Assembly: GCA_965214705.1 (NCBI GenBank)
Contig: OZ243972.1
Span: 2,112,001 to 2,176,000, forward strand
Length of the DNA: 64,000 nucleotides
Direction of reading: 5' to 3'
DNA from: Alphaproteobacteria bacterium
Lineage (GTDB): Bacteria > Pseudomonadota > Alphaproteobacteria > UBA828
A model generated the notes under the pieces. That model was not told where the DNA came from, made no database searches, and worked only from the letters and a program-made list of their open reading frames with translations. Positions 1 to 25,521 of the stretch are shown here, piece by piece. How positions within the stretch are numbered: the stretch's first letter is position 1; every line of letters starts with the position of its first letter. Both the position numbers and the translations under genes were made by a program.

Positions 1-1087
1 CGGCCCGAGCGCCGTCCACGCTTCCCTCGGGGGCGGCGCAGCCGAGGGCGCCGAGAGCCTGGCGTGCTCTCTCCAGCGTGCTGGCGCGGCAGCCGTTGGC
101 GAGGATGCCGAAGTAGCGAATGCGGTGCATGCCGTCCGGCAGGACGTGCCTCAGGAAGCGGCGGATGAACTCGTCGGCGCTCACGGTGGCGATGCCGTAG
201 CGCGGCTTTCTCTGCCCCGGCGCCTTGGGCTTTCGGTGGCGGAAGGAGACCGTCTCGCCGTCGAAGGAGACGATGCGGCTGTCGGAGATGGCGATCCTGT
301 GCGTGTAGTGCGAGAGGTACCGGAAGACCTGCTCAGGCCCGCGGAAGGGCCGCTTGGCGTAGACCACCCAGTCCCTGGCCCGGGCGGCGGCAAGCGTGGC
401 GTGGAACTCGCCGGGATTGGCGAGGTGGGCGAGGGTGCCGTGGAACTCCAGGTCCCCCCGGCCGTGGGCGCGGGCGAGCTCCTTGAGGAAGAGGCGGCGG
501 AACAGGCTGCCGAGGACCTTGACGGGGGCGAGGAAGGTGGTGCTCCCCGTCTTCCACTCGCCACTGTCTACGTCGAAGCCCGCGTTGGGCACGACCACGT
601 GCAGGTGCGGGTGGAAGCGGAGCTTCTGATCCCAGGTATGGAGGACCGCGGTGCCGCCGATGCGCATGCCGCCGTGGCGGGGATCGGCGGCGATGGTGCG
701 CAGGGTCTCGGCGACGGCCCGGAAGAGGATGTCGAACACCACCCTGCGGTTGCAGAAGGCAATGGCGGCAACCTCCTTGGGCAGGGTGAAGACCACATGG
801 AAGTAGGGCACCGGCAGGATGTCCCCGGCGCGCTCCTCGCTCCAGAGGTTGGCGGCGAGACCCTGGCAGGTGGGGCAGTGGCGGTTGCGGCAGGAGTTGA
901 AGAGCGGATGCTCGCGCCCGCAGCCCTCGCAGGCGTACATGTGGCCGCCGAGCACGGCGGTGCGGCACGCCTCGATGGCGCCCATGACCTTGAGCCGGGC
1001 GGCGTCGATGCGCCCTTTGTGGCGCTCACGGAAAGCGGCGCCGGCGCGGCGGAAGATCTCCGCCACGCCCGCGCGTTCGGCCTCCAC
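1..1087 (-). CDS. IS91-family HUH/Y2 transposase (partial, 3' end outside the window)
   Basis: Same sequence as the 413-aa ORF 3673-4914 apart from isolated SNPs; HPHLH and YLSHY motifs. Confidence 0.9.
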   Translation of the reverse strand, partial: MEAERAGVAEIFRRAGAAFRERHKGRIDAARLKVMGAIEACRTAVLGGHMYACEGCGREHPLFNSCRNRHCPTCQGLAANLWSEERAGDILPVPYFHVVFTLPKEVAAIAFCNRRVVFDILFRAVAETLRTIAADPRHGGMRIGGTAVLHTWDQKLRFHPHLHVVVPNAGFDVDSGEWKTGSTTFLAPVKVLGSLFRRLFLKELARAHGRGDLEFHGTLAHLANPGEFHATLAAARARDWVVYAKRPFRGPEQVFRYLSHYTHRIAISDSRIVSFDGETVSFRHRKPKAPGQRKPRYGIATVSADEFIRRFLRHVLPDGMHRIRYFGILANGCRASTLERARQALGALGCAAPEGSVDGARA

Positions 1088-1093
1088 GCGCCG

Positions 1094-1972
1094 TCAGTTG
1101 CGCAACGCTGCGAAGCCTGAGATCGGGTGGTCGAGGCCCTCGAACATCTTGCCGGTGACGCGGGCGTAGTGACGGGTCGTGTTCGCGCTTCGATGGCCGA
1201 GCATGTCCCGGATCACCTCGATATCGCCGCCGCGCTCGAGGAGATGGGTCGCCGCCGAATGGCGCAGGCAATGGAAGGTGTAGCTGCGGTCGAGCTCGGC
1301 AATGTCGCGCGCCCTCCTGAAGGCGGCCTGCAAGGTCTCCGTTGCGATGGGCCTGTCGAGCGAGACGCCGTAGAAGAGCCAGTTCGTCGGACGCGGCCAG
1401 ATGTTCCTGTAGTAGACGCGCAAGTAGTGGATGACGATGTCCGGCAACGGTGCCATTCTCTCGGTGCCGCCTTTGCCGGAGGGGATGTGCAGCAGCTTCT
1501 TCTCCGACAGGATGTCGCCGACCTTGATGGCCAAGGTCTCGGAGATGCGGAGCCCGCCGCCATAGCCGGTGACAATGGCAGCACGGTGGCGGAGGTCGGG
1601 TGTCGCAAGGATGAGGTGCTCGACCTCCTGCTCCGACATGTAGCGCGGCAGCTTGCCGGGCTTCTTGCGGGAGCGCAGGCCGGCGACATGGTCAGGCCAG
1701 CCGAGTGTGTCGATGTAGAGGAAGTTCAGCGCGGCGAAGGAGACGTTGGTCGTGCCCGGACTGAGCCCCTTGTCGATCCGCCCCAGGTACCACTGGCGCA
1801 CCTGCTCGGCGTCGAGCTCGTCCGGCGAGGCGTCGTAGTACCTGGCCAGGTTCTTGATCTCGCAGATGTAGGCCTTGGACGTGCTCGCGGCCAGATTGGC
1901 GATGCGGAGCTGCTCCTCCATGCGCTGGCGAAGAGGGGTGACGGTGTTCGTGTCGCACGCGGTCCCGGTCAT
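1094..1972 (-). CDS. Tyrosine recombinase/integrase of the element (likely start MTGTACD)
   Basis: Catalytic motifs GLRISE, GKGG, HCLRH, LGH, RHYAR; GGGAG RBS before the ATG. Confidence 0.9.
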   Translation of the reverse strand: MTGTACDTNTVTPLRQRMEEQLRIANLAASTSKAYICEIKNLARYYDASPDELDAEQVRQWYLGRIDKGLSPGTTNVSFAALNFLYIDTLGWPDHVAGLRSRKKPGKLPRYMSEQEVEHLILATPDLRHRAAIVTGYGGGLRISETLAIKVGDILSEKKLLHIPSGKGGTERMAPLPDIVIHYLRVYYRNIWPRPTNWLFYGVSLDRPIATETLQAAFRRARDIAELDRSYTFHCLRHSAATHLLERGGDIEVIRDMLGHRSANTTRHYARVTGKMFEGLDHPISGFAALRN

Positions 1973-2262
1973 TATCGATCTCCCTGGATCGCGACGGCGC
2001 GCCGCCGGACCGATCCGGCGACGGTCCGTCGCAGGGGTCGATGCTAACCACTGGTGATCGGGAGGCTGCTGGGGATCCGCCACCCGACGGGCGGAGCGCC
2101 ACTGACGCAACCGGGAAGCGAACGCACAGAACAAACGGCACCCGCGACGCCTCGGAAATGAATGAACTCTACGCCGCTAACTCCGCGTAGCGGCTTCGTT
2201 CAAGGATAGTTTGAACTCCTCTCTAGCCTTTTCAATAACTTCAGATCCGTAAATTAGGGGGA

Positions 2263-3233: not shown

Positions 3234-3672
3234 TCGCAAGAATCACCGTGCTTCCGATCTACGTCATCAACCTCGACCGCAGGCCGGATCGGCTCGCGGC
3301 AATCGCGGCGGACCTGGACCGGCTCGGCCTACCCTTCGAGCGCATCAAGGCCGTCGACGGCCAAGGTTAAGGGTTGGGCAGGCTCTCTCTCGAGAGCCTG
3401 CCCAACCCTTTTGAACGAAGCCGCGGGCCACGAGAGGCGAAGTTGAGCTATGTGGAAAGTGCGCTGATGTCAGCGTCAGGCGGCATCCACCGGCAGCAGA
3501 GTTGCGCATAAAATCGACGCTCGCGCCGGTCTTTCGGCAGGCATGCGGGCGCACGCTGCGAGGACTGAGCGGGGTGTGAGCCGAGGGCTGTCAGCCCGGC
3601 TCAAGCGGAGACAGGTTCGGTCGTGCGTCGGCGCTTTGGCGCCGTTGCGCGGGGCCGAAGCGAGCGGGCGTC

Positions 3673-4914
3673 TCACGGTTTCCCCCTGTGGGTCGGCGGC
3701 AGCGCCGGCGGGCCGCGCGTCGAGCGGGGCTCATGGCGGCGGCGGATTTCGCGGACGAGGCGCATGACGCCGCCGCAGTGGGGGCAGGCCACGGGCGCGG
3801 TGCCGATCTCGGGCTCTTCGTCGGGCTCGGCCTGAGCGCCGTCCACGCTTCCCTCGGGGGCGGCGCAGCCGAGGGCGCCGAGAGCCTGGCGTGCTCTCTC
3901 CAGCGTGCTGGCGCGGCAGCCGTTGGCGAGGATGCCGAAGTAGCGAATGCGGTGCATGCCGTCCGGCAGGACGTGCCTCAGGAAGCGGCGGATGAACTCG
4001 TCGGCGCTCACGGTGGCGATGCCGTAGCGCGGCTTTCTCTGCCCCGGCGCCTTGGGCTTTCGGTGGCGGAAGGAGACCGTCTCGCCGTCGAAGGAGACGA
4101 TGCGGCTGTCGGAGATGGCGATCCTGTGCGTGTAGTGCGAGAGGTACCGGAAGACCTGCTCAGGCCCGCGGAAGGGCCGCTTGGCGTAGACCACCCAGTC
4201 CCTGGCCCGGGCGGCGGCAAGCGTGGCGTGGAACTCGCCGGGATTGGCGAGGTGGGCGAGGGTGCCGTGGAACTCCAGGTCCCCCCGGCCGTGGGCGCGG
4301 GCGAGCTCCTCGAGGAAGAGGCGGCGGAACAGGCTGCCGAGGACCTTGACGGGGGCGAGGAAGGTGGTGCTCCCCGTCTTCCACTCGCCACTGTCTACGT
4401 CGAAGCCCGCGTTGGGCACGACCACGTGCAGGTGCGGGTGGAAGCGGAGCTTCTGATCCCAGGTATGGAGGACCGCGGTGCCGCCGATGCGCATGCCGCC
4501 GTGGCGGGGATCGGCGGCGATGGTGCGCAGGGTCTCGGCGACGGCCCGGAAGAGGATGTCGAACACCACCCTGCGGTTGCAGAAGGCAATGGCGGCAACC
4601 TCCTTGGGCAGGGTGAAGACCACATGGAAGTAGGGCACCGGCAGGATGTCCCCGGCGCGCTCCTCGCTCCAGAGGTTGGCGGCGAGACCCTGGCAGGTGG
4701 GGCAGTGGCGGTTGCGGCAGGAGTTGAAGAGCGGATGCTCGCGCCCGCAGCCCTCGCAGGCGTACATGTGGCCGCCGAGCACGGCGGTGCGGCACGCCTC
4801 GATGGCGCCCATGACCTTGAGCCGGGCGGCGTCGATGCGCCCTTTGTGGCGCTCACGGAAAGCGGCGCCGGCGCGGCGGAAGATCTCCGCCACGCCCGCG
4901 CGTTCGGCCTCCAC
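3673..4914 (-). CDS. IS91-family HUH/Y2 transposase
   Basis: N-terminal Zn-binding region CEGC...CRNRHCPTC, HUH motif HPHLH, Y2 motif YLSHY, C-terminal CPHC. Confidence 0.93.
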   Translation of the reverse strand: MEAERAGVAEIFRRAGAAFRERHKGRIDAARLKVMGAIEACRTAVLGGHMYACEGCGREHPLFNSCRNRHCPTCQGLAANLWSEERAGDILPVPYFHVVFTLPKEVAAIAFCNRRVVFDILFRAVAETLRTIAADPRHGGMRIGGTAVLHTWDQKLRFHPHLHVVVPNAGFDVDSGEWKTGSTTFLAPVKVLGSLFRRLFLEELARAHGRGDLEFHGTLAHLANPGEFHATLAAARARDWVVYAKRPFRGPEQVFRYLSHYTHRIAISDSRIVSFDGETVSFRHRKPKAPGQRKPRYGIATVSADEFIRRFLRHVLPDGMHRIRYFGILANGCRASTLERARQALGALGCAAPEGSVDGAQAEPDEEPEIGTAPVACPHCGGVMRLVREIRRRHEPRSTRGPPALPPTHRGKP

Positions 4915-4920
4915 GCGCCG

Positions 4921-5799
4921 TCAGTTGCGCAACGCTGCGAAGCCTGAGATCGGGTGGTCGAGGCCCTCGAACATCTTGCCGGTGACGCGGGCGTAGTGAC
5001 GGGTCGTGTTCGCGCTTCGATGGCCGAGCATGTCCCGGATCACCTCGATATCGCCGCCGCGCTCGAGGAGATGGGTCGCCGCCGAATGGCGCAGGCAATG
5101 GAAGGTGTAGCTGCGGTCGAGCTCGGCAATGTCGCGCGCCCTCCTGAAGGCGGCCTGCAAGGTCTCCGTTGCGATGGGCCTGTCGAGCGAGACGCCGTAG
5201 AAGAGCCAGTTCGTCGGACGCGGCCAGATGTTCCTGTAGTAGACGCGCAAGTAGTGGATGACGATGTCCGGCAACGGTGCCATTCTCTCGGTGCCGCCTT
5301 TGCCGGAGGGGATGTGCAGCAGCTTCTTCTCCGACAGGATGTCGCCGACCTTGATGGCCAAGGTCTCGGAGATGCGGAGCCCGCCGCCATAGCCGGTGAC
5401 AATGGCAGCACGGTGGCGGAGGTCGGGTGTCGCAAGGATGAGGTGCTCGACCTCCTGCTCCGACATGTAGCGCGGCAGCTTGCCGGGCTTCTTGCGGGAG
5501 CGCAGGCCGGCGACATGGTCAGGCCAGCCGAGTGTGTCGATGTAGAGGAAGTTCAGCGCGGCGAAGGAGACGTTGGTCGTGCCCGGACTGAGCCCCTTGT
5601 CGATCCGCCCCAGGTACCACTGGCGCACCTGCTCGGCGTCGAGCTCGTCCGGCGAGGCGTCGTAGTACCTGGCCAGGTTCTTGATCTCGCAGATGTAGGC
5701 CTTGGACGTGCTCGCGGCCAGATTGGCGATGCGGAGCTGCTCCTCCATGCGCTGGCGAAGAGGGGTGACGGTGTTCGTGTCGCACGCGGTCCCGGTCAT
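4921..5799 (-). CDS. Tyrosine recombinase/integrase
   Basis: R-K-HxxR-H-Y motifs intact. Confidence 0.92.
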   Translation of the reverse strand: MTGTACDTNTVTPLRQRMEEQLRIANLAASTSKAYICEIKNLARYYDASPDELDAEQVRQWYLGRIDKGLSPGTTNVSFAALNFLYIDTLGWPDHVAGLRSRKKPGKLPRYMSEQEVEHLILATPDLRHRAAIVTGYGGGLRISETLAIKVGDILSEKKLLHIPSGKGGTERMAPLPDIVIHYLRVYYRNIWPRPTNWLFYGVSLDRPIATETLQAAFRRARDIAELDRSYTFHCLRHSAATHLLERGGDIEVIRDMLGHRSANTTRHYARVTGKMFEGLDHPISGFAALRN

Positions 5800-6918
5800 T
5801 ATCGATCTCCCTGGATCGCGACGGCGCGCCGCCGGACCGATCCGGCGACGGTCCGTCGCAGGGGTCGATGCTAACCACTGGTGATCGGGAGGCTGCTGGG
5901 GATCCGCCACCCGACGGGCGGAGCGCCACTGACGCAACCGGGAAGCGAACGCACAGAACAAACGGCACCCGCGACGCCTCGGAAATGAATGAACTCTACG
6001 CCGCTAACTCCGCGTAGCGGCTTCGTTCAAGAGCTACAGGAAGATCTGGGCCCGGAGCCGCTTCTGAACCTGGCTGAGAAAGCGTGCGTGCTGAGCCATG
6101 CGAACGCGCTGCGGCACCTCCTCCATTCAGAACACCCAGCGGCCGTGATCCTCGAGGATGACGCTGAGTTCGGAGAGGGGCTTGCGCAACTCTCCCGCTC
6201 GATCGACTGGTGGCCGGAAGGCACCTTGCTGCTGAAGCTGGACCAACCGTTCCCGAGAAAGCGGCTCGTCGGCCTGCCGTGTGGACGAACGCCGGACGGC
6301 CGCAACCTGAGAGAGAACATCCGGTGGAGCTCAGGGTCGGTGGGCTACATCGCTACTCGCGCCGCTGCCGGCGAGATACTGGTGTCCCTCGAGACAGACA
6401 GCATCATGCCCTTCGACGAACTGATGTTCGACTGCCGCATATCAGACCTAGCGCGCTGGCTCCGTGCAATGCAAGTCCAGCCCGCGCCTGTCCGGCAACG
6501 GGACCGCGGGAGACCGGATGAATTCCCCTCGGATTTGGAGGACAGCCGCCAGACACCGGAGTCATTGAGTTATCGCCACCGCCGTCGACAGCGGCGCCGA
6601 TTTCACCGTCGTCTGTATCTCTGGATGTTGTGGGCAATCGGCAATGCGAAGAGCATGAAGATCACCTACTGCCCGTAATCGCAGATTCAAACTGACCCAC
6701 TACCCGCGATTGACGACTGACCGGGTTTAGGCTATCCGCGGGCTCGTGGCCGTGACGAATCGCGGTGGCCTCGACTGACGAAGCCGGCCCTGGCGGGACC
6801 GGCTTCGGAACTGGGGTCCGGTGTAGACCTACCGAGGCGCACCGAACTGGCTCATCTGAGGTGGAAATCCTAGCGATTCCCGCGAGCCGGTCAAGTGCGC
6901 CCTCAAGAAGAGGGCACA

Positions 6919-7143: not shown

Positions 7144-7560
7144 GACCGCGCGCCTGAGTCCAGTCCGTTGTCGGCGATCAGGTCACGGTAGCACAGGCGC
7201 TTGCCGATCATCCCGGCGACCACCGCGCCCATCTGGTCGATGGTGTCGCTCTCGCGCACGTTGTGGCGGCCCGCGAACTCTTGGACGTACCGTTGCAGGT
7301 GCTTCGCGCTCAGCTTGTGGTAGACGCCCTTGAACGAAGCCGCTACGCGGAGTTAGCGGCGTAGAGTTCATTCATTTCCGAGGCGTCGCGGGTGCCGTTT
7401 GTTCTGTGCGTTCGCTTCCCGGTTGCGTCAGTGGCGCTCCGCCCGTCGGGTGGCGGATCCCCAGCAGCCTCCCGATCACCAGTGGTTAGCATCGACCCCT
7501 GCGACGGACCGTCGCCGGATCGGTCCGGCGGCGCGCCGTCGCGATCCAGGGAGATCGATA

Positions 7561-8439
7561 ATGACCGGGACCGCGTGCGACACGAACACCGTCACCCCTC
7601 TTCGCCAGCGCATGGAGGAGCAGCTCCGCATCGCCAATCTGGCCGCGAGCACGTCCAAGGCCTACATCTGCGAGATCAAGAACCTGGCCAGGTACTACGA
7701 CGCCTCGCCGGACGAGCTCGACGCCGAGCAGGTGCGCCAGTGGTACCTGGGGCGGATCGACAAGGGGCTCAGTCCGGGCACGACCAACGTCTCCTTCGCC
7801 GCGCTGAACTTCCTCTACATCGACACACTCGGCTGGCCTGACCATGTCGCCGGCCTGCGCTCCCGCAAGAAGCCCGGCAAGCTGCCGCGCTACATGTCGG
7901 AGCAGGAGGTCGAGCACCTCATCCTTGCGACACCCGACCTCCGCCACCGTGCTGCCATTGTCACCGGCTATGGCGGCGGGCTCCGCATCTCCGAGACCTT
8001 GGCCATCAAGGTCGGCGACATCCTGTCGGAGAAGAAGCTGCTGCACATCCCCTCCGGCAAAGGCGGCACCGAGAGAATGGCACCGTTGCCGGACATCGTC
8101 ATCCACTACTTGCGCGTCTACTACAGGAACATCTGGCCGCGTCCGACGAACTGGCTCTTCTACGGCGTCTCGCTCGACAGGCCCATCGCAACGGAGACCT
8201 TGCAGGCCGCCTTCAGGAGGGCGCGCGACATTGCCGAGCTCGACCGCAGCTACACCTTCCATTGCCTGCGCCATTCGGCGGCGACCCATCTCCTCGAGCG
8301 CGGCGGCGATATCGAGGTGATCCGGGACATGCTCGGCCATCGAAGCGCGAACACGACCCGTCACTACGCCCGCGTCACCGGCAAGATGTTCGAGGGCCTC
8401 GACCACCCGATCTCAGGCTTCGCAGCGTTGCGCAACTGA
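7561..8439 (+). CDS. Tyrosine recombinase/integrase
   Basis: Same as copies 1 and 2; catalytic residues intact. Confidence 0.92.
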   Translation: MTGTACDTNTVTPLRQRMEEQLRIANLAASTSKAYICEIKNLARYYDASPDELDAEQVRQWYLGRIDKGLSPGTTNVSFAALNFLYIDTLGWPDHVAGLRSRKKPGKLPRYMSEQEVEHLILATPDLRHRAAIVTGYGGGLRISETLAIKVGDILSEKKLLHIPSGKGGTERMAPLPDIVIHYLRVYYRNIWPRPTNWLFYGVSLDRPIATETLQAAFRRARDIAELDRSYTFHCLRHSAATHLLERGGDIEVIRDMLGHRSANTTRHYARVTGKMFEGLDHPISGFAALRN

Positions 8440-8445
8440 CGGCGC

Positions 8446-9687
8446 GTGGAGGCCGAACGCGCGGGCGTGGCGGAGATCTTCCGCCGCGCCGGCGCCGCTT
8501 TCCGTGAGCGCCACAAAGGGCGCATCGACGCCGCCCGGCTCAAGGTCATGGGCGCCATCGAGGCGTGCCGCACCGCCGTGCTCGGCGGCCACATGTACGC
8601 CTGCGAGGGCTGCGGGCGCGAGCATCCGCTCTTCAACTCCTGCCGCAACCGCCACTGCCCCACCTGCCAGGGTCTCGCCGCCAACCTCTGGAGCGAGGAG
8701 CGCGCCGGGGACATCCTGCCGGTGCCCTACTTCCATGTGGTCTTCACCCTGCCCAAGGAGGTTGCCGCCATTGCCTTCTGCAACCGCAGGGTGGTGTTCG
8801 ACATCCTCTTCCGGGCCGTCGCCGAGACCCTGCGCACCATCGCCGCCGATCCCCGCCACGGCGGCATGCGCATCGGCGGCACCGCGGTCCTCCATACCTG
8901 GGATCAGAAGCTCCGCTTCCACCCGCACCTGCACGTGGTCGTGCCCAACGCGGGCTTCGACGTAGACAGTGGCGAGTGGAAGACGGGGAGCACCACCTTC
9001 CTCGCCCCCGTCAAGGTCCTCGGCAGCCTGTTCCGCCGCCTCTTCCTCGAGGAGCTCGCCCGCGCCCACGGCCGGGGGGACCTGGAGTTCCACGGCACCC
9101 TCGCCCACCTCGCCAATCCCGGCGAGTTCCACGCCACGCTTGCCGCCGCCCGGGCCAGGGACTGGGTGGTCTACGCCAAGCGGCCCTTCCGCGGGCCTGA
9201 GCAGGTCTTCCGGTACCTCTCGCACTACACGCACAGGATCGCCATCTCCGACAGCCGCATCGTCTCCTTCGACGGCGAGACGGTCTCCTTCCGCCACCGA
9301 AAGCCCAAGGCGCCGGGGCAGAGAAAGCCGCGCTACGGCATCGCCACCGTGAGCGCCGACGAGTTCATCCGCCGCTTCCTGAGGCACGTCCTGCCGGACG
9401 GCATGCACCGCATTCGCTACTTCGGCATCCTCGCCAACGGCTGCCGCGCCAGCACGCTGGAGAGAGCACGCCAGGCTCTCGGCGCCCTCGGCTGCGCCGC
9501 CCCCGAGGGAAGCGTGGACGGCGCTCAGGCCGAGCCCGACGAAGAGCCCGAGATCGGCACCGCGCCCGTGGCCTGCCCCCACTGCGGCGGCGTCATGCGC
9601 CTCGTCCGCGAAATCCGCCGCCGCCATGAGCCCCGCTCGACGCGCGGCCCGCCGGCGCTGCCGCCGACCCACAGGGGGAAACCGTGA
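8446..9687 (+). CDS. IS91-family HUH/Y2 transposase
   Basis: HPHLH, YLSHY and Zn-binding motifs. Confidence 0.93.
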   Translation: MEAERAGVAEIFRRAGAAFRERHKGRIDAARLKVMGAIEACRTAVLGGHMYACEGCGREHPLFNSCRNRHCPTCQGLAANLWSEERAGDILPVPYFHVVFTLPKEVAAIAFCNRRVVFDILFRAVAETLRTIAADPRHGGMRIGGTAVLHTWDQKLRFHPHLHVVVPNAGFDVDSGEWKTGSTTFLAPVKVLGSLFRRLFLEELARAHGRGDLEFHGTLAHLANPGEFHATLAAARARDWVVYAKRPFRGPEQVFRYLSHYTHRIAISDSRIVSFDGETVSFRHRKPKAPGQRKPRYGIATVSADEFIRRFLRHVLPDGMHRIRYFGILANGCRASTLERARQALGALGCAAPEGSVDGAQAEPDEEPEIGTAPVACPHCGGVMRLVREIRRRHEPRSTRGPPALPPTHRGKP

Positions 9688-9949
9688 GACGCCCGCTCGC
9701 TTCGGCCCCGCGCAACGGCGCCAAAGCGCCGACGCACGACCGAACCTGTCTCCGCTTGAGCCGGGCTGACAGCCCTCGGCTCACACCCCGCTCAGTCCTC
9801 GCAGCGTGCGCCCGCATGCCTGCCGAAAGACCGGCGCGAGCGTCGATTTTATGCGCAACTCTGCTGCCGGTGGATGCCGCCTGACGCTGACATCAGCGCA
9901 CTTTCCACATAGCTCAACTTCGCCTCTCGTGGCCCGCGGCTTCGTTCAA

Positions 9950-9991
9950 AAGGGTTGGGCAGGCTCTCGAGAGAGAGCCTGCCCAACCCTT
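9950..9991. repeat. Perfect 19-bp hairpin at the element 3' (oriIS-like) end
   Basis: AAGGGTTGGGCAGGCTCTC-GAGA-GAGAGCCTGCCCAACCCTT; also present in copies 2 and 4. Confidence 0.95.
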
Positions 9992-10858
9992 AACCTTGTG
10001 CGCCCGCTTGAGCATGGACCAAAACGACTCCATGCCATTGACGTGGGCTTGGTTGCGGACATACTCGCCAGCACTGTGGTTCACGGCCTCGCGGTCGAAC
10101 TCGCCTTCCAGCGGGTTGTAGGCTGCGCTTTCGTCCGTATAGACCTTCGCGCCCGGCTCGGTCTTCTCTGCGACGAAGCCCGCGACATGCGGGGCATCCG
10201 TGTTCTGAATGTGCCGCACCGCGACGCGGTTGGTGGCGCGGTCCTTGGTGCCGACCACGGCCTCTTTGCCGACTGCACCGCGCCCGCTCAGCGTCTTCCG
10301 CTTGGCCTTCGACATGTTCGCGCGCCGCCCACCCACGTATGTCTCATCGGCCTCGACCGGCCCCGAGAATAGCGATTCGCTCTCGGCGGACCAAGCCTCC
10401 CTGATCCGATGCAGCATGAACCAAGCGGTCTTCTGCGTCACCCGCAGGTCGCGATGCAGCTTCATCGACGACACGCCCTTGAGGCTGGTCATCTCCAGGT
10501 AGATGGCGAAAACCCACTTGCGCAGCGGAACCTTGGAGCGCTCCAAGGCCGTGCCGATCCGCACCGAGAAGGCCCGCTTGCAGGCCGGGCAGTAGTAGGG
10601 CAGGCCGGACGTGGCGGACGCTTCCGCAGTCTCGGTGCATCCGCAGCGCGGGCAATGGCGACCATCCGGCCAGACCAGAGACTCGAACCACGTGGCGGCG
10701 GAAGCCTCGTCCGGGAACATCTCGGTCAACTCGATCAGGCTGATTCCCTCGCGGTGCGCTTTGCCCGGTGCCTTCTTCGCCATCGCCCTAACCCCTTGTG
10801 CTAACGTCTTGATCTGAATATAGGGGTTCACGACCGTTCAGTCAAGTATATAATCCCC

Positions 10859-11127
10859 TAAATTAGAGCCATCCGCCCGTATTTCGAGACGTTCTCGATT
10901 GCGTCAGGGCTCTGCGATAATATTGTTGTCAAAGCGGCAACACCTACGAGTATGTTTAGGTAAGTCCCTCCTTCATCTATGTACAGCGTAATATCGAAAC
11001 CCTGACCATAGATGTCAGCAGTGGTCGATTTGAGGCCAATCTCGAACGATTGCCTCCTATCGGCAAACTGAGATTCTTCATATATGTGCCGGGTCGTGTG
11101 GATGTATGTCGCCGCCACCAAGATCAT
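10859..11127 (-). pseudogene. 5' part of an unknown lower-GC gene, interrupted by the IS1595 transposon and again by element copy 1
   Basis: ...KYGRMALI continues across the TSD into 2249-2204 as YGSEVIEKAREEFKLS with no stop. Confidence 0.65.
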
Positions 11128-16693: not shown

Positions 16694-18529
16694 CCGCACC
16701 GATTCAGTGCCAGGTTTGCGCGATCGTTGGAATCAGTCGCTCAGCAGATACTGCGTCACCAATGCTCGAGTTATGGCTTCGCCGCGTCCCGAAAGCCTTC
16801 GAATATCCTCTTCCGACATGGCAGAGAAGTCTGTTGGGTAGCGAATCACTTCGTCTCGATCCACCCAGTTGGCCGGCTTCAATGGCACACGCCGGTCAAT
16901 CTGGCCGAGAGCGGCGTAGACGAAGCGGTCGATGCGTCCGGTTTTCGCGTGGTCGTGGAGGCGCTGCTTGGTGGCGTCCTGGACCTTGCGCATAACCGCA
17001 GAGACGACCTGGGTCATTCGCTTTGGCCAGCTGAGGGGCACCGCCTCGCCAGTGAACTGTCCGGCTCCGGCATCACTCGCGATGATGATGTCGGGGTTGT
17101 AGCTGATCGCGCTGATCCTGGGATCCCGGCCAGGCTCCATCACGCTCACGCCGAGGTTTTCGAAGACACCACCGTCGGTGACGATGACGCGGCGAACATC
17201 GGTTTGCCCGTTTCGCTCGAAAGGCCTGCTCCAGTCAAACGGTGGAAGGAATGGCGGATAGGCAGCCGAGGCGGTCACCGCGTCGGCGACCCGGAGCGCG
17301 TTCGCTGGCGCCCAGCCGTGTCTCCAGGTGCCGAAGCGCTCGTTGCTCATTCGGAACGCGGTGCCCGTTCGCAGCTCGCACGCGTTGAAGACGATCGATT
17401 TTGCTTGGCGCGTCGGCGCATCGCAGTTCTGAGTTCCGAGCGTCTCGGCGATCGCGTCGGCAACGACGTGTGTCCACGAGTAGCGGCGTCGGAGGGGCCA
17501 GGAACTCCACGAGACGGTGTTGCTTGCATTGCGGAGTCCGGGAAAGAGTGCCGCGACCCGATTCGCCATCAGTGTCGTCAGCTCGGCTGCGAACGTCGGC
17601 ACGTTCACCGCGGCAAGGTTCCACAAGAGCCGGGTAGAGCGTGCGGGGTGCATAAGTTTCCTCAGCGCGGGCCTCACCAGACCTCGACGAAGGAACCGGA
17701 CGGTTTTGCAATCGATTTCGGCGAACGGGGCGTCGGTGTAGCCGAGCAACCCGGTCATGACCGATCCGCCGGATACGCCCGAGATGACGTCGATCTCATC
17801 GAGGAGCTGAAGATCTTCGAGGGCGCGCAAAGTGCCGAGATGAAAGGCGACGGCCCTCGATCCGCCGCCCGACAGCGACAGACCGATTTTCTTGGGAAGA
17901 GACGTGACCGGAGGCGGGGCTGTCACGCCGCCGCGCGCCTCTATGGCCATCGCGATTCCGTTTCGATGCGCGGCCAGTTCGTGCTTCTCGAACGCGTAAG
18001 CACCGAGTTGGGGCTCCGGCGCCACGGCATGCCCGACGATGACCATCAGCTGCCTGGCGCCGCTATCGGGTGCACTCGCAAATATGGTGGCGATTCCCCT
18101 GAAGTCCGTGACGCTGGGCTCGGCCGGACTGACCGGATGTGAGTGCCAGGTTCCCACGTAGCGCACGATGCCGTGGGTCCGATCTTCGTAGTCCTGACAA
18201 AGATCTGTCGTGCCGTGCGTTCCGCAGAGAAAGTGTTCTGCTGAGAAACTGCTGTCGCGCGGAGGACCGCTGACGTTCGACACCCATGCGATCCCCAGGG
18301 TCTCGTCGAACTCTCCGAACAGCAACCCGCCGGTTTCTTGTTCCGGGGACCGTTCGCGGGCGCCAGCCCGGATCCAGCCGGTCATGTCGCGCCAGGCATT
18401 GGCCGACATCCGAAAGTCGAGGCCGTCGGCGACCCATCGGATATCCGGCGAAAACCGAAAGGTTAAGGGTTGGGCAGGCTCTCTCTCGAGAGCCTGCCCA
18501 ACCCTTTTGAACGAAGCCGCGGGCCACGA

Positions 18530-20689
18530 CCCAAGTTGGCACTTTTTCCGACCAGCCGAGCCTGTTCGAGCCAGTTTTGCGGCGCTGAACCACTAGATGT
18601 TGGGGTTGGAGGACACCTGAGACCCACATTTGCCATTCGTGGTCCTGGAAGCCAATTGTGGGGCCAGGACTTTGGAGTTGAGTCGATATCCCTCTTGCCA
18701 GATGCCGCGAACGCCGTGTATGCGAAACAGGCATCGCAGAAACGGCGCCGCCATGTACATCAAGGCAACCAGGACACACACCGACAAGGCCGGCCAGCCG
18801 GTCCGAAGCCATCGCCTCGTGCTCGCCCAGCGCGTCGGCGACAAGGTGCGCCACAGGACGCTGCTCAATCTCGGCACCGACTATCCGGTGCCGCGCGAGA
18901 AGTGGAAGGCCGTCACCGAACTCGCCGAGGCGCTGCTTCACGGCAAGCCGCCGCTGTTCGAGGGCGAGGCGGATGTGCGGGCCGCAGCCGAGGACATCGT
19001 CGCCAAGCTCAGGGCCAGGGGGTTCCGCGTCGAGGCGATGCAGGAAGAGGCGCGCAAGCCCGACATCGCCACCGTCGACCTCGATACCCTGGAGCACGAG
19101 AACCCGCGCACGGTCGGCTGCGAGCGCCTGTGCCTCAAGGCCCTCGACGCCCTCGGCTTCGCCGAAATCCTCCACGGCCTCGACATCAAGGGCCGCGACG
19201 GGCGCATCGCCAGCGCGCTGATCGTCGCCAGGATGGTCCATCCCGCCAGCGAGCGTGATACCAGCCGCTGGCTCCGCCACGACAGCGCGGCCGCCGAGCT
19301 CCTGGGCCTGGAGGGCGACCGCAAGGCGCTGCGGCGCAAGACGCTCTACCGCATCGGCGACCTGCTCTGGCGCCACCGCGCCGCCATCCAGCGGGAGCTG
19401 TTCAACCGTGAGCGCGCACTGCTCGACCTGCCCGAGACGATCGCCTTCTACGATCTCACCAACGTCCACTACCACGGCCACACGGGCGGCGAGCTTCCCA
19501 GGTTCGGGCGCTCCAAGCAGAAGCGCGACGACTGTCCCCTCATCACGCTGGCGCTGGCGCTCGACGGCGCGGGCTTCCCGCGCAGTTGCGAGATCCTGCC
19601 GGGCAACGTGAGCGAGCCGGGCACGCTGCACGAGGCGCTGGCGCGGCTCGAGGCGGTGTGCGGCGGCACGGCGCCGAAGCCCACGGTGGTCATGGACGCG
19701 GGCATCGCCACCGAGAAAAACATCGCGTGGCTGGGCGAGCAGGGCTACGACTGGATCGCGGTCAGCCGCGGTGCCAGGCCTGCGCCGCCCGAGGGCGGAC
19801 CCGAGGCCCTGCTGATCACCAGCGCGCGCCACGAGGTGCGGGCCTGGCGGCTTGCCAGCGAGGACGGCGAGGCGCGGCTCTACGTCGTCAGCGAGGGCAA
19901 GAAGAAGGCCGAGAACGCGATCATCGGCCTGAGGCGGAACCGCTTCGAGGCGGCGCTGGAAAGGCTCCACGGCGGCCTCCCGGTCAAGGGCCGCCTCAAG
20001 CGCTACGACAAGGTGCTGGAGAGCATAGGCCGCCTCAAGCAGCGCTTCTCCGCCGTCGCCAGGCACTACGAGATCACGGTCGAGAGGGCGAAAACCGGCC
20101 CCAATGCCACCGCCGTGCGCTTCAAGCGCAGGCCGCGATACGACGAGGCCGATGAGGGCGCCGGTGCCTATGTGCTGCGCACCAGCCACGTCGACTGGGA
20201 CATCGAGACGGTCCTGCGGACGTACTGGCGGATCACGGATATCGAGGCGACATTCCGGAGCCTGAAATCCGAGCTCGGCCTTCGCCCGATCTGGCACCAG
20301 CTCGACCGGCGCATCGCGGCCCACCTGCTGATCGCCGTGCTGGCCTACCACGCCGTGCATCTGATCCGTACCCGGCTGGCCGCGCGCGGCATCCACAAGT
20401 GCTGGGCGTCGATCCGCGAGAGCATGCGGACCTGGGTGCGGATCACCACGCGCCTGCGCCAGACCGACGGCACCTTGATCGTCAACCGCCAGGACACGCG
20501 CCCGGCCGCCGAGGTTGCCGCAATCTCCTCGGCGGCGGGCGTGGACCCCGCCATCCACCGCACGAGGACCCGTCTGATGAGCTGACAGAATCTCACAAAA
20601 TGTGGGGCCATGTTGGAATCGACCGAGAAAAATATCGCGTTGAATCAAACCAATAGGGAACACAGGCAGCGGAAAAGTGCCAACTTGGG
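18530..20689 (+). mobile_element. IS1634-family insertion sequence, copy 1 (2160 bp)
   Basis: IR CCCAAGTTGGCACTTTT; TSD ACGA. Confidence 0.9.
18753..20585 (+). CDS. IS1634-family DDE transposase
   Basis: FYDLTN, FGRSKQKRDD, VVMDAGI, IEATFRSLKSELGLRPIWH. Confidence 0.88.
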   Translation: MYIKATRTHTDKAGQPVRSHRLVLAQRVGDKVRHRTLLNLGTDYPVPREKWKAVTELAEALLHGKPPLFEGEADVRAAAEDIVAKLRARGFRVEAMQEEARKPDIATVDLDTLEHENPRTVGCERLCLKALDALGFAEILHGLDIKGRDGRIASALIVARMVHPASERDTSRWLRHDSAAAELLGLEGDRKALRRKTLYRIGDLLWRHRAAIQRELFNRERALLDLPETIAFYDLTNVHYHGHTGGELPRFGRSKQKRDDCPLITLALALDGAGFPRSCEILPGNVSEPGTLHEALARLEAVCGGTAPKPTVVMDAGIATEKNIAWLGEQGYDWIAVSRGARPAPPEGGPEALLITSARHEVRAWRLASEDGEARLYVVSEGKKKAENAIIGLRRNRFEAALERLHGGLPVKGRLKRYDKVLESIGRLKQRFSAVARHYEITVERAKTGPNATAVRFKRRPRYDEADEGAGAYVLRTSHVDWDIETVLRTYWRITDIEATFRSLKSELGLRPIWHQLDRRIAAHLLIAVLAYHAVHLIRTRLAARGIHKCWASIRESMRTWVRITTRLRQTDGTLIVNRQDTRPAAEVAAISSAAGVDPAIHRTRTRLMS

Positions 20690-20932
20690 ACGAGAGGCGA
20701 AGTTGAGCTATGTGGAAAGTGCGCTGATGTCAGCGTCAGGCGGCATCCACCGGCAGCAGAGTTGCGCATAAAATCGACGCTCGCGCCGGTCTTTCGGCAG
20801 GCATGCGGGCGCACGCTGCGAGGACTGAGCGGGGTGTGAGCCGAGGGCTGTCAGCCCGGCTCAAGCGGAGACAGGTTCGGTCGTGCGTCGGCGCTTTGGC
20901 GCCGTTGCGCGGGGCCGAAGCGAGCGGGCGTC

Positions 20933-22174
20933 TCACGGTTTCCCCCTGTGGGTCGGCGGCAGCGCCGGCGGGCCGCGCGTCGAGCGGGGCTCATGGCGGC
21001 GGCGGATTTCGCGGACGAGGCGCATGACGCCGCCGCAGTGGGGGCAGGCCACGGGCGCGGTGCCGATCTCGGGCTCTTCGTCGGGCTCGGCCTGAGCGCC
21101 GTCCACGCTTCCCTCGGGGGCGGCGCAGCCGAGGGCGCCGAGAGCCTGGCGTGCTCTCTCCAGCGTGCTGGCGCGGCAGCCGTTGGCGAGGATGCCGAAG
21201 TAGCGAATGCGGTGCATGCCGTCCGGCAGGACGTGCCTCAGGAAGCGGCGGATGAACTCGTCGGCGCTCACGGTGGCGATGCCGTAGCGCGGCTTTCTCT
21301 GCCCCGGCGCCTTGGGCTTTCGGTGGCGGAAGGAGACCGTCTCGCCGTCGAAGGAGACGATGCGGCTGTCGGAGATGGCGATCCTGTGCGTGTAGTGCGA
21401 GAGGTACCGGAAGACCTGCTCAGGCCCGCGGAAGGGCCGCTTGGCGTAGACCACCCAGTCCCTGGCCCGGGCGGCGGCAAGCGTGGCGTGGAACTCGCCG
21501 GGATTGGCGAGGTGGGCGAGGGTGCCGTGGAACTCCAGGTCCCCCCGGCCGTGGGCGCGGGCGAGCTCCTCGAGGAAGAGGCGGCGGAACAGGCTGCCGA
21601 GGACCTTGACGGGGGCGAGGAAGGTGGTGCTCCCCGTCTTCCACTCGCCACTGTCTACGTCGAAGCCCGCGTTGGGCACGACCACGTGCAGGTGCGGGTG
21701 GAAGCGGAGCTTCTGATCCCAGGTATGGAGGACCGCGGTGCCGCCGATGCGCATGCCGCCGTGGCGGGGATCGGCGGCGATGGTGCGCAGGGTCTCGGCG
21801 ACGGCCCGGAAGAGGATGTCGAACACCACCCTGCGGTTGCAGAAGGCAATGGCGGCAACCTCCTTGGGCAGGGTGAAGACCACATGGAAGTAGGGCACCG
21901 GCAGGATGTCCCCGGCGCGCTCCTCGCTCCAGAGGTTGGCGGCGAGACCCTGGCAGGTGGGGCAGTGGCGGTTGCGGCAGGAGTTGAAGAGCGGATGCTC
22001 GCGCCCGCAGCCCTCGCAGGCGTACATGTGGCCGCCGAGCACGGCGGTGCGGCACGCCTCGATGGCGCCCATGACCTTGAGCCGGGCGGCGTCGATGCGC
22101 CCTTTGTGGCGCTCACGGAAAGCGGCGCCGGCGCGGCGGAAGATCTCCGCCACGCCCGCGCGTTCGGCCTCCAC
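20933..22174 (-). CDS. IS91-family HUH/Y2 transposase
   Basis: Identical protein to copy 2. Confidence 0.93.
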   Translation of the reverse strand: MEAERAGVAEIFRRAGAAFRERHKGRIDAARLKVMGAIEACRTAVLGGHMYACEGCGREHPLFNSCRNRHCPTCQGLAANLWSEERAGDILPVPYFHVVFTLPKEVAAIAFCNRRVVFDILFRAVAETLRTIAADPRHGGMRIGGTAVLHTWDQKLRFHPHLHVVVPNAGFDVDSGEWKTGSTTFLAPVKVLGSLFRRLFLEELARAHGRGDLEFHGTLAHLANPGEFHATLAAARARDWVVYAKRPFRGPEQVFRYLSHYTHRIAISDSRIVSFDGETVSFRHRKPKAPGQRKPRYGIATVSADEFIRRFLRHVLPDGMHRIRYFGILANGCRASTLERARQALGALGCAAPEGSVDGAQAEPDEEPEIGTAPVACPHCGGVMRLVREIRRRHEPRSTRGPPALPPTHRGKP

Positions 22175-22180
22175 GCGCCG

Positions 22181-23059
22181 TCAGTTGCGCAACGCTGCGA
22201 AGCCTGAGATCGGGTGGTCGAGGCCCTCGAACATCTTGCCGGTGACGCGGGCGTAGTGACGGGTCGTGTTCGCGCTTCGATGGCCGAGCATGTCCCGGAT
22301 CACCTCGATATCGCCGCCGCGCTCGAGGAGATGGGTCGCCGCCGAATGGCGCAGGCAATGGAAGGTGTAGCTGCGGTCGAGCTCGGCAATGTCGCGCGCC
22401 CTCCTGAAGGCGGCCTGCAAGGTCTCCGTTGCGATGGGCCTGTCGAGCGAGACGCCGTAGAAGAGCCAGCTCGTCGGACGCGGCCAGATGTTCCTGTAGT
22501 AGACGCGCAAGTAGTGGATGACGATGTCCGGCAACGGTGCCATTCTCTCGGTGCCGCCTTTGCCGGAGGGGATGTGCAGCAGCTTCTTCTCCGACAGGAT
22601 GTCGCCGACCTTGATGGCCAAGGTCTCGGAGATGCGGAGCCCGCCGCCATAGCCGGTGACAATGGCAGCACGGTGGCGGAGGTCGGGTGTCGCAAGGATG
22701 AGGTGCTCGACCTCCTGCTCCGACATGTAGCGCGGCAGCTTGCCGGGCTTCTTGCGGGAGCGCAGGCCGGCGACATGGTCAGGCCAGCCGAGTGTGTCGA
22801 TGTAGAGGAAGTTCAGCGCGGCGAAGGAGACGTTGGTCGTGCCCGGACTGAGCCCCTTGTCGATCCGCCCCAGGTACCACTGGCGCACCTGCTCGGCGTC
22901 GAGCTCGTCCGGCGAGGCGTCGTAGTACCTGGCCAGGTTCTTGATCTCGCAGATGTAGGCCTTGGACGTGCTCGCGGCCAGATTGGCGATGCGGAGCTGC
23001 TCCTCCATGCGCTGGCGAAGAGGGGTGACGGTGTTCGTGTCGCACGCGGTCCCGGTCAT
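22181..23059 (-). CDS. Tyrosine recombinase/integrase (N>S variant)
   Basis: Same as the other copies except PTSW versus PTNW. Confidence 0.92.
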   Translation of the reverse strand: MTGTACDTNTVTPLRQRMEEQLRIANLAASTSKAYICEIKNLARYYDASPDELDAEQVRQWYLGRIDKGLSPGTTNVSFAALNFLYIDTLGWPDHVAGLRSRKKPGKLPRYMSEQEVEHLILATPDLRHRAAIVTGYGGGLRISETLAIKVGDILSEKKLLHIPSGKGGTERMAPLPDIVIHYLRVYYRNIWPRPTSWLFYGVSLDRPIATETLQAAFRRARDIAELDRSYTFHCLRHSAATHLLERGGDIEVIRDMLGHRSANTTRHYARVTGKMFEGLDHPISGFAALRN

Positions 23060-25521
23060 TATCGATCTCCCTGGATCGCGACGGCGCGCCGCCGGACCGA
23101 TCCGGCGACGGTCCGTCGCAGGGGTCGATGCTAACCACTGGTGATCGGGAGGCTGCTGGGGATCCGCCACCCGACGGGCGGAGCGCCACTGACGCAACCG
23201 GGAAGCGAACGCACAGAACAAACGGCACCCGCGACGCCTCGGAAATGAATGAACTCTACGCCGCTAACTCCGCGTAGCGGCTTCGTTCAAATGATGCTGG
23301 GGGTGATCAGATGACTGGGTAATGAGAAAACCGATGGCGGCGTCATCCGGCTCGGCGAGCCGCTCGGCCACTGCGTTGAGTGCCCGGGCGGACAGTGCGG
23401 CCGTGTCGGCATGAGATGCGACGAAGGTCGGATCGGAGCAACCGGGCTCGGGCTGGCGGAGGTCTTCAACGGCGTCCGATGTCCAGAAAGCCCTGGCCCA
23501 CTCGTCCAGCCAGTCTCGGGTCACTGCGGTCACTCCGAGACGCCGATGGACGTCAAGAGGCCCAGCCTGGTATCTAGGAGGCGCGATGACTGCAACGGCG
23601 TGTTGCGCAGTGGCGCTCATCATCACCGAGGCGACCGGAACGCGACGCTGGTGGTCCTTGAGTACAGCCTCGAGCTTGCTCTTGACCCTCAGGGACGCGG
23701 TCGCGTCGATGACTACGTCGACATCGCTATCCCAGTCGGATCCGGCCAGCGTCCGACTGATGATGTTCTCCCACTTAGTCTCTACTGCAACCTTGGGGGC
23801 GATCGATTGCACCCTCCGCGCGAGTGCGGCGACCTTCGTCTCGTTGGTGTCTGTTGCCGAAAAGTTTTGTCGCACGAGCACGCCCGGGGTGACACGGGCC
23901 CAGTCGTAGAGCGCGAGATGGGCGACCCCGGCTCGTGCGAGATGCTCCGCGATGAGCCCGCCGATCGCTCCACAGCCCCAGAGCGCGACCCGCTTGCCTC
24001 GAAACCAGTCCATCGGCGTACCCTCGTCTCGGCGAGTGACGATTTCGGGCCGGTTCTCGATCGCGCGGCACCACCGCACGCGGGCATCGCGACGCCATTG
24101 AAAGAGGATTTCCCATATGGAGTCGATCACCTCCTGAATGGCCGCCGGGGTATCTTGGTCCTTGTAGCGGTTGCTGAATTGGCAGGCGATGGAGGCCGCG
24201 CGCAGTTTGGCGACGTCGGCCGTTTCGATTTCCCAGAAGGTTAGGTGCTGGCGTCGTTGTTCAACATCGCCGGCGATGCCGCGCGAGGGAGCGCCTATTC
24301 CGACATACATGGGCGAGTCGGCCGGGACACGCTCGGAGGCAAGCATCAGGTGCGCGAGCAGGCGATAGCCGAGATTGCCGCGGCTCTCGAGATAATGGAG
24401 GAAGTAATCGACGGTTCGGGGATATTCGAACGGAAGCTCGAAGTCGAGTAGCGCCGCGGGCGCAACGAGCAGGTCGTTCGGGATCTCGTGGATGGGCAGC
24501 CAAGCGTTGACCTGGAGTAGGTCGAGCTTGGACTGCGAGAGTACGGCAGCGCCGAACCATGGCCAAGTATCACGGCCTGGCGTATCGGCATTCACGCAGA
24601 TCGCGGTGGAGGCAACCGTATAGGCGACGGGCGGATGCAGTGGTCCTTCGGGGTCGTCGAGCTCGTTGCGGGCGCCGCGTCGAAACCACTCGTCGAGTTG
24701 GGCCAGGAATCCGAACATGCCCTGCGAAGGAATCCACTGCGTCTCGGTGGACAGGTACACGCACAGACGATGTCCCCACTGAACGTGGCCAAAGCCGTGA
24801 AATCGGGTATGGGCGGTATCGACGGCTGGCGGCGTGAAGGGGAAATCCGCCGGGACCGACAGCGTTACGCTCTCACGATCGTGCAGAGGAAGGCCACCCT
24901 CGACGCGCTCGTAACGAGTGCAATCGAGGGTGATATCGATGTTCAGGGAAGCGCCGGGGGCCGTTTCTTCGTCGATACCGACAATCCGGACGGGAGAACG
25001 GTCGGTTTCGGCGATCCGTTGGAGCTGTGCGAGCGCAATCAGTTGTCCTTCACTGACGGCCACGACCGAATCCGACTGCGACGGCGGGGGCGGCGGCGGC
25101 CGCGCCGGCCCCTTTCAGCGCGTCGCTCATGGGCTTGCTCGCTTCGCTCTCGCCGATATGCGCGAAGCCGTTTTGGCCGACCTCGAAGATGATCGGCTCG
25201 GGATTGTCCTCGTCCGGATGCTCGTGTGTGCACAGGAACGCGTTGGGGACGATGCGCTCGTACTGTCTCTTCGCCTTGGCGTGGGGCGGGTTGTCGCCAG
25301 GATCGTTTCGCGCCGGGACCGGGTCCGAGCTCGAGACAACGTAGCCGGGGTCGAGGGCAGCATTGCCGATGTCGCGGACCATGTCGGACTTCAGGGTCTC
25401 GTCGTCCTGGTCCTGGTCCTTCCAGTACATGGCCGACTTGGAGCAATGATGGGGTGCAAGCAGGGCATTCCAGGCCAGCGTTGCGTCCTCGCTGCGGTCG
25501 AAGATGCGGCGAATAACGGGA

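Follow-up and report, generated by a model that had tools for sequence, protein, structure and literature searches.

Insertion sequences (ISs) of the IS91 family, such as IS91, IS801 and IS1294, encode a Y2 HUH transposase with an N-terminal zinc domain. For IS91, one account (PMC13181058) describes single- and double-stranded circles in which ori and ter are juxtaposed, and states that only the bottom-strand single-stranded circle inserts, that the transposase TnpA alone suffices for excision and insertion, that the target is not duplicated and a motif next to oriIS resembles the ter cut site, and that the family is known for subterminal palindromes at ori. A review (PMC5714925) describes IS91 as devoid of inverted repeats. 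When an IS91-type transposase misses its termination end, the element can carry neighboring genes along. Here, we analyzed a 64,000-nt stretch of an alphaproteobacterial genome (positions 2,112,001 to 2,176,000 of contig OZ243972.1; hereafter the window, C1:2112001-2176000 of the 7.92-Mb genome G000). Positions 7330-9995 of the window constitute a 2666-bp rolling-circle IS of the IS91 family with two genes—a tyrosine recombinase followed by the transposase—and positions 9936-9995 are its right (oriIS) end. Pairing between the two ends of this element, stacked on the ori hairpin, would provide a concrete substrate of about 100 nt.

Two further groups of mobile DNA bear on this arrangement. In the IS200/IS605 family (IS608), cleavage sites are recognized by pairing with a guide beside a hairpin, while tyrosine recombinases have single-stranded substrates in the attC sites of integrons and in the attP of phage CTX, which folds. 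A preliminary description of the window had likened the predicted circle junction of the element to attC, to be recognized by the transposase or the co-encoded recombinase. A recombinase-bearing form of IS91 is listed in IS catalogs, and IS91 is already known for its circle joints, its palindromes at ori and ter, and its target mimicry; our literature search found no paper on the ends of recombinase-bearing IS91 elements, on paired repeats spanning a joint, or on a role of the recombinase.

Genes, ends and computed joint of the element

The features of the element and its right flank, in window coordinates, are as follows.

7330-7343, plus strand: left inverted repeat (IRL), the left terminal 14 nt (terIS side), TTGAACGAAGCCGC, exact complement of the right inverted repeat
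7339-7364, plus strand: subterminal left-end dyads GCCGCTA/TAGCGGC and CTACGC/GCGTAG, overlapping inner IRL
7399-8439, plus strand: tyrosine recombinase gene (int), Xer/IntI-like, 346 amino acids (aa); Pfam PF00589 (115 bits) and PF13495 (46 bits)
8446-9687, plus strand: IS91-family Y2 HUH transposase gene (tnpA), 413 aa; Pfam PF04986 and PF14319, NCBIfam NF033538
9903-9912, plus strand: motif TTCCACATAG (CCCCATAG in most relatives), from the alignment of right ends
9936-9949, plus strand: right inverted repeat (IRR), the 14-nt repeat GCGGCTTCGTTCAA, abutting the 5' foot of the ori hairpin
9950-9991, plus strand: oriIS hairpin, a perfect 19-bp stem with arms AAGGGTTGGGCAGGCTCTC (9950-9968) and GAGAGCCTGCCCAACCCTT (9973-9991) and loop GAGA
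9992-9995, plus strand: tail AACC, the last 4 nt of the element as placed by empty sites, forming the bulge in the folded joint
9996-10002, plus strand: flank TTGTGCG, derived from the target and partly mimicking the left end TTGAACG

Folding the computed end-joint from window slices with DNA parameters yielded the 14 + 19 bp helix with a 4-nt bulge that the preliminary description had put forward, at -42.9 kcal/mol for the top and -42.5 kcal/mol for the bottom strand. Shuffled joints (n = 300) averaged -10.1 ± 2.3 kcal/mol, with a minimum of -16.5, and the ori hairpin alone reached -25.2. The IRR/IRL 14-mer occurs seven times exactly in the window, each time at an end of an element copy; with up to two mismatches it has nine window matches as compared to 0.60 expected, and none of 100 shuffles reached nine.

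The element ends named in the preliminary description likewise agreed with empty sites, provided by repeats elsewhere in the genome: taking exactly TTGAAC...AACC out of a filled site restores the empty one, and the target is not duplicated. Two cases deviate by one or two extra T at the right. Since TT(G) opens most right flanks, a cut up to 2 nt further right is also compatible with the same joint sequence. Across the genome, 90 of 94 left ends begin TTGAACG and four differ, solely at bases 1-2, a uniformity expected for the transfer of one defined strand. The hairpin loop is flipped to TCTC, not GAGA, in 6 of 90 ordinary right ends. Upstream of IRR, the motif TTCCACATAG/CCCCATAG is kept at a distance of about 25-45 nt across the branch and may be a protein-binding site.

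The transposase scored 382.8 bits against the curated IS91 model NF033538 (cut-off 125), and 184.4 and 104 bits against the Pfam families Y2_Tnp and Zn_Tnp_IS91, respectively; no IS200-type (Y1 HUH) family was among its Pfam and NCBIfam matches. Its residues H159, H161, Y257 and Y261—the predicted HUH histidines and two predicted catalytic tyrosines—are invariant across an alignment of 70 sequences. The sole Rfam match was a sub-threshold riboswitch inside tnpA.

The recombinase, composed of the Phage_integrase and SAM_4 domains, stayed under all NCBIfam cut-offs, including those of the XerC equivalog (133.9 bits; cut-off 335.15), XerD (117.4 bits; cut-off 329.6) and the integron integrase TIGR02249 (129.2 bits; cut-off 265). 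It is about equally near to an archaeal XerC-like protein (4a8e, 211.7 bits) and to IntI4 (208 bits). In the profile alignment, residues about 186-217 and 228-237 of IntI4 (2a3v; about 32 + 10 residues) have no counterpart in it, and because this IntI-specific insertion is absent, the protein is not an integron integrase. Invariance of R196, K221, H288, R291, H314 and Y323 across the 70 sequences suggests an active enzyme with a DNA site somewhere in the element.

With IS91, IS801 and IS1294 the element thus shares the Y2 HUH transposase with its N-terminal zinc domain, insertion that leaves the target unduplicated, a short target motif at the ori end similar to the ter cut site, and palindromes lying subterminally at ori and, in small form, at ter—the dyads at 7339-7364 being the counterpart of the terIS palindrome of IS91—and an accessory gene directly upstream of tnpA. 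An ori-ter joint is common to both as well, although theirs is a circle intermediate (PMC13181058), while that of 7330-9995 is known from sequence. The differences lie in the upstream gene, which here encodes a 346-aa tyrosine recombinase with all catalytic residues instead of orf121 (IS91) or the open reading frames (ORFs) of 90-93 aa in two other canonical plasmid copies, and in the ends: the element has terminal inverted repeats (14-19 nt), of which IRR directly adjoins the ori hairpin, and lacks the GGCAGCC..GGCTGC ter motif and the TTCCTAT ori motif, its end sequences being unrelated.

Repeats, joints and targets in the genome and in relatives

Relatives were taken from two sets: set 1 comprised 80 related loci from one-genome-per-species contigs, and set 2 comprised 30 IS91-family loci, found in 21 of 301 genomes sampled across the phylum. 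By tblastn, an int match was present in 82 of 85 set-1 loci, non-adjacent in at least one (L088), and a recombinase match lay upstream of tnpA in 28 of the 30 set-2 loci; most of the sampled IS91-family loci hence carry a tyrosine recombinase. Adjacent int and tnpA with enough flank were available for 76 of 114 loci. Allowing a gap of 0-3 nt between hairpin and repeat, the 12 nt 5' of the downstream hairpin were complementary to the int 5' region at 10 or more of 12 positions in 45 of these 76 loci (five of which look spurious by eye), as compared to 11 of 76 when the upstream region was swapped for that of a randomly chosen other locus. About 40 relatives, with transposase identities of 27-82%, share the resulting layout, in which IRL is terminal, IRR adjoins the ori hairpin and a short tail follows. 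Wherever termini could be fixed, IRL starts there; they were placed by means of differing flanks among copies (L141, L162, L169), a target made of tandem repeats (L061) or heterologous joints.

Covariation of the repeat pair in homologs, a check suggested by the preliminary description, was evident. The outer 4-10 nt of the repeats vary freely yet match their own partner: the outer 6 nt agreed with the IRL of the same locus at a mean of 4.84 of 6 positions (at least 5 in 35 of 45) and with the IRL of other loci at 2.61 of 6 (at least 5 in 164 of 1753), figures that are descriptive as kin are not independent. Local pairing within the left end covaries, too, with CCCGC..GCGGG appearing as ATCGC/GCGAT, GCTGC/GCAGC or ACCGC/GCGGT in relatives. 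At the right end, stem sequences are unrelated between subgroups, hairpin loops measure 3 to 45 nt and IRR sits 0-3 nt from the hairpin foot. Unrelated stems and free loop length favor a folded hairpin over a dyad site in duplex DNA and, because loops run from 3 to 45 nt, IRR lies at a constant distance from the terminus solely when the hairpin is folded. Transition-type mismatches favored bottom-strand G.T by 26 to 12 among 38 non-redundant loci, a weak hint fitting the bottom-strand intermediate of IS91. RNAalifold returned no structure for 36 right ends, the hairpin arms being out of register in the alignment, and per-locus pairing counts were used in place of its consensus. Together, the alignments indicate that the layout with covarying outer bases is kept across a large, little-studied, recombinase-bearing branch of IS91.

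Right-end-to-left-end joints, the existence of which had been predicted in the preliminary description, occur in nature: we found one in a tandem within the genome, two in related genomes and 21 on metagenome contigs. The head-to-tail tandem (G000:C2:643960-649295) bears the predicted joint in the form IRR-GGTT-arm-TCTC-arm-AACC-IRL, a perfect 37-bp palindrome (G000:C2:646566-646643, corresponding to L007:1439-1516). The computed joint, without GGTT, reads ...CCCTTAACC|TTGAACG..., so the tandem differs from it by four extra bases, GGTT, opposite AACC and by a loop flipped to TCTC. Among the Logan contigs of runs containing the element (six runs hold half or more of the stretch), those of four runs compared with the tandem joint break at element ends and none listed bridges the joint, which makes them uninformative on the tandem or GGTT; the four bases 'left out' at 1453 in run contigs derive from ordinary right ends.

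In one related genome (L130), the right end of one element is followed by CAAC and then by the left end of another, and in a second (L085, a 2984-nt contig) the right end runs through AAAA into a left end. The metagenome search used a family-level pattern (hairpin foot, 6-16 nt, repeat core) and matched 28 contigs, which resolved into the 21 joints, six coincidences and one ordinary right end read backwards; the exact joint of element 7330-9995 had no match in metagenome contigs. Nearly all 21 joints carry a 4-nt tail plus 5 nt ahead of the core, and tails in relatives and natural joints are short, about 4 nt, and include TCAC, CAAC, AAAC, AAGA and GCAC. IRR pairs with IRL in the folds of all 14 joints that are complete on their contig, and RNAalifold on the joints gave a consensus of 31 pairs at -43.56 kcal/mol with compensatory change in four pairs. 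Some metagenome contigs are cyclic and unit-length and represent circles or tandem arrays of relatives: both ends are identical over 123 nt in L181 and L191, the recombinase match of L191 continuing unbroken across the join, and the near-unit-length L184, L196 and L198 have repeated or extra sequence where the contig ends meet.

With respect to targets, a logo of 79 unique right flanks gave T at +1 in 64, T at +2 in 74, G at +3 in 41, C at +6 in 55 and G at +7 in 46. The element inserts 5' of TTGnnCG, a mimic of its own left end TTGAACG. Since such a partial mimic lies 3' of every integrated right end, a short, weak folded structure exists without a circle; the assertion that the structure is confined to an excised circle or tandem dimer therefore holds for the full fold, which needs adjacent ends, and not for this weaker version. 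At base -1 of 95 unique left flanks we counted C 45, T 27, A 18 and G 5, that is, G is avoided. The left flanks (for instance, window 7318-7329) are also rich in A from -9 to -7, with counts of 30, 48 and 44 among the 95 at these three positions, a patch that none of the factors tested explained. Nine copies with the common right flank CGAACTTCC(G/A)(T/G)T (for instance, G000:C2:689572 and C3:1553281) depart from the usual TTG; sharing one flank, they occupy one fixed point of another repeated sequence. A double-strand recombinase exchange across a 7-bp overlap TTGnnCG, prompted by the conservation of +1 to +3 and +6 to +7, was considered and rejected, as the expected mixed overlaps were not seen: left-end positions 4-5 vary in 0 of 94 ends, and the right flank reads TTGAACG in just 2 of 79 unique flanks.

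Models for the use of the paired ends

The model we prefer, with about even confidence, is that the two ends, by pairing in single-stranded DNA (ssDNA), display the site of termination and joining to the HUH transposase. This enzyme would nick the bottom strand at ...CAA|GGTT and stay linked to the 5' end, while replication would peel the nicked bottom strand off. Once single-stranded, the left end could pair with IRR beside the ori hairpin; this IRL-IRR pairing would set the ter cut site beside the linked 5' end, where cleavage and rejoining would close a single-stranded circle whose joint is the long bulged hairpin. The folded joint might then be reopened for insertion at left-end-mimicking targets, the pairing acting as a DNA guide for both ter and junction recognition. 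The recombinase would have a separate job, most likely in the resolution of tandems or cointegrates or as help with termination. Geometry speaks for folding, with IRR at the hairpin foot and a terminus distance that is constant solely in the folded state. If pairing indeed guides termination, it would explain precise excision in the recombinase-bearing branch.

IS608 offers a working analogy: its HUH transposition proceeds through single strands, with subterminal hairpins, cuts a few nucleotides from the hairpin foot and a target equal to the left-end cut motif. It differs in its Y1 transposase, from an unrelated fold family, and in guides of 4 nt within one end, as opposed to a 14-19-nt pairing that joins both ends.

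Several observations weigh against this model, foremost against a strict need for pairing. IRR variants with two uncompensated mismatches make up 7 of 92 right ends in the genome, at seven different sites, and the inner repeat core ACGAAnCCGC is conserved in sequence beyond what pairing calls for, which points to protein recognition. The repeat covariation itself is equally expected of a protein that binds both ends as duplex DNA. Canonical elements get by without repeats: in three recombinase-less plasmid copies used for comparison—one an IS91 copy (orf121 + tnpA), the other two, not annotated by name, presumably IS1294-like and IS801—there was no inter-end repeat longer than 9 nt and none beside the ends. 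These three have GGCAGCC..GGCTGC at ter and TTCCTAT at ori in common. Pairing is thus no general need of the family transposase, and at least in this small comparison terminal repeats go with the recombinase-bearing branch.

Further points concern the joint and the target. Bases at the joint are paired in the minimum-energy fold of 7 of 14 related natural joints; AACC is extrahelical in 7330-9995, as the preliminary description had it, but the clean 4-nt bulge at the cut is special to close kin of this element. The two units of the genomic tandem differ at three interior positions, so the tandem does not demonstrate a circle; a dimeric circle is its less likely origin, and insertion of one copy beside a resident one, whose left end offers a perfect target, the more likely. 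Both the GGTT fill-in and the flipped loop may be artifacts of assembly or polishing, or may equally stem from templated correction, which acts on near-palindromes and would yield just such a fill-in; in that case the fill-in would record intracellular folding. At +4 and +5 the target departs from the left end, leaving a simple guide-target duplex unsupported. Element orientation showed no bias relative to local GC skew after masking of all copies, at any window size or threshold (for example, 43 vs 36), in a test of little power since the skew of the genome is weak and scrambled; an initial bias (29 vs 9) had been an artifact of the element's own base composition. Finally, this being a sequence analysis, no ssDNA, circle or cleavage was seen for element 7330-9995.

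A second model, which we consider rather unlikely, has the HUH transposase produce the single-stranded circle and the element's own Xer-like recombinase use the folded joint, by one-strand exchange, to integrate the circle or to resolve multimers, tandems or cointegrates. The joint would then resemble integron attC or phage CTX attP as a recombinase site, and be a new case of a tyrosine recombinase acting on folded ssDNA. The corollary that the terminal repeats exist for the recombinase step, in a two-enzyme single-strand pathway of the recombinase-bearing IS91 branch, seems no more probable to us. In favor of this role are the association of int with tnpA (directly upstream in 28 of 30 sampled loci, with an int match in 82 of 85 relatives), the invariant catalytic residues, and the presence of repeats in about 40 recombinase-bearing loci against none of the three recombinase-less ones. 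The build of the joint is also attC-like—two helices with a small bulge between them, capped by a loop whose length is free, and an Xer/IntI-like recombinase encoded alongside—and insertion occurs 5' of TT with an element starting TT, the same pattern that cassette insertion shows.

As a comparison of general shape, leaving the box consensus aside, the attC likeness drawn in the preliminary description is thus reasonable (loops of 3-45 nt with stems kept), but it does not extend to the enzyme or the context. The recombinase lacks the stretches corresponding to IntI4 186-217 and 228-237 and falls below the XerC, XerD and IntI cut-offs, the joint lies mid-stem rather than at the base, and the surroundings are an IS and not a cassette array. 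A tyrosine recombinase needs binding arms, whereas the targets are many and degenerate, about 79 of them with only about five specified bases in common, which fits a HUH nuclease better. The counts at left-end positions 4-5 and of TTGAACG flanks (0 of 94 and 2 of 79) leave no heteroduplex signature either, and canonical IS91 inserts with TnpA alone by the same kind of target rule (PMC13181058).

Alternatively, and to us similarly doubtful, the repeats could be ordinary duplex binding sites of one protein, recombinase or transposase, with their pairing a by-product and the hairpin simply the ori palindrome of the family. The inner core conserved across elements with 27-82% transposase identity would be expected of such sites, covarying ends are typical of classical transposon terminal repeats, and the seven mismatched-IRR copies at seven different sites fit as well. 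What this account leaves unexplained is the asymmetric placing of the repeats: IRL is terminal, while IRR lies at least 46 nt inside, at a distance that varies with hairpin size and becomes constant solely by folding. IRR within 0-3 nt of the hairpin foot in the loci found, and the weak bottom-strand excess of G.T over A.C (26 to 12), likewise argue for the folded state.

It is highly improbable that the hairpin only terminates transcription, or is a palindrome by chance, and plays no part in mobility: it does lie downstream of tnpA, with TTTTG following on the bottom strand, but it sits about 260 nt past the stop codon and 4 nt from the terminus in all copies, relatives have no T run after it and keep it with unrelated stems, and subterminal ori palindromes are known in the family (PMC13181058).

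Further copies and neighboring elements

The window contains three more copies of the element.

3365-6030, minus strand: second complete copy, inverted
1-2203, minus strand: third copy, cut by the window start (copy A)
18461-23290, minus strand: fourth copy (copy D), 4830 bp, interrupted by an IS1634-family IS

The insertion inside copy D (window 18521-20930) encodes a 651-aa IS1634-family transposase (NF033559, 257 bits). In G000, the element is massively expanded, with about 90 copies in 7.9 Mb: exact 20- and 24-mers matched 96 left ends and 86 right ends, some 50 copies have the intact length of 2666 bp and nearly the same sequence, and masked copies sum to 262,598 bases (about 3.3% of 7.92 Mb). 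Longer forms occur at several sites each (4316 bp, nine times; 7076 bp, three times; 4830 bp, twice), and their recurrence at different sites suggests that insertion-carrying copies went on moving or were duplicated.

The element at 7330-9995 (copy C) interrupts an IS1595-family element within its transposase gene (minus-strand ORF 9914-10831), and a 28-nt repeat belonging to the interrupted element (10837-10864) has a partner at 2252-2279, adjoining copy A. We rejected the idea that an inversion had taken place between copies A and C, since an intact IS1595-type copy at another place in the genome supplies the empty site and shows copy C to be a simple insertion.

G000 also harbors a second IS91-family element, whose transposase is 40% identical and which has its own recombinase and the same end layout, with the repeat TTGAACTGAGCCGCG, a 13-bp hairpin and the tail CAAT.

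C1:1594958-1596055 and C2:576628-577725: copies of the second IS91-family element (L163, L170)
C3:531367-532464: a further copy of it (L142)

Copy L142 has no recombinase match within 1.5 kb upstream of tnpA. Elsewhere on C3, a copy of the first element with its left end at 2475853 (minus strand) carries a 12-nt right-end remnant, CAACCCTTAACC, repeated 4 nt past its complete right end.

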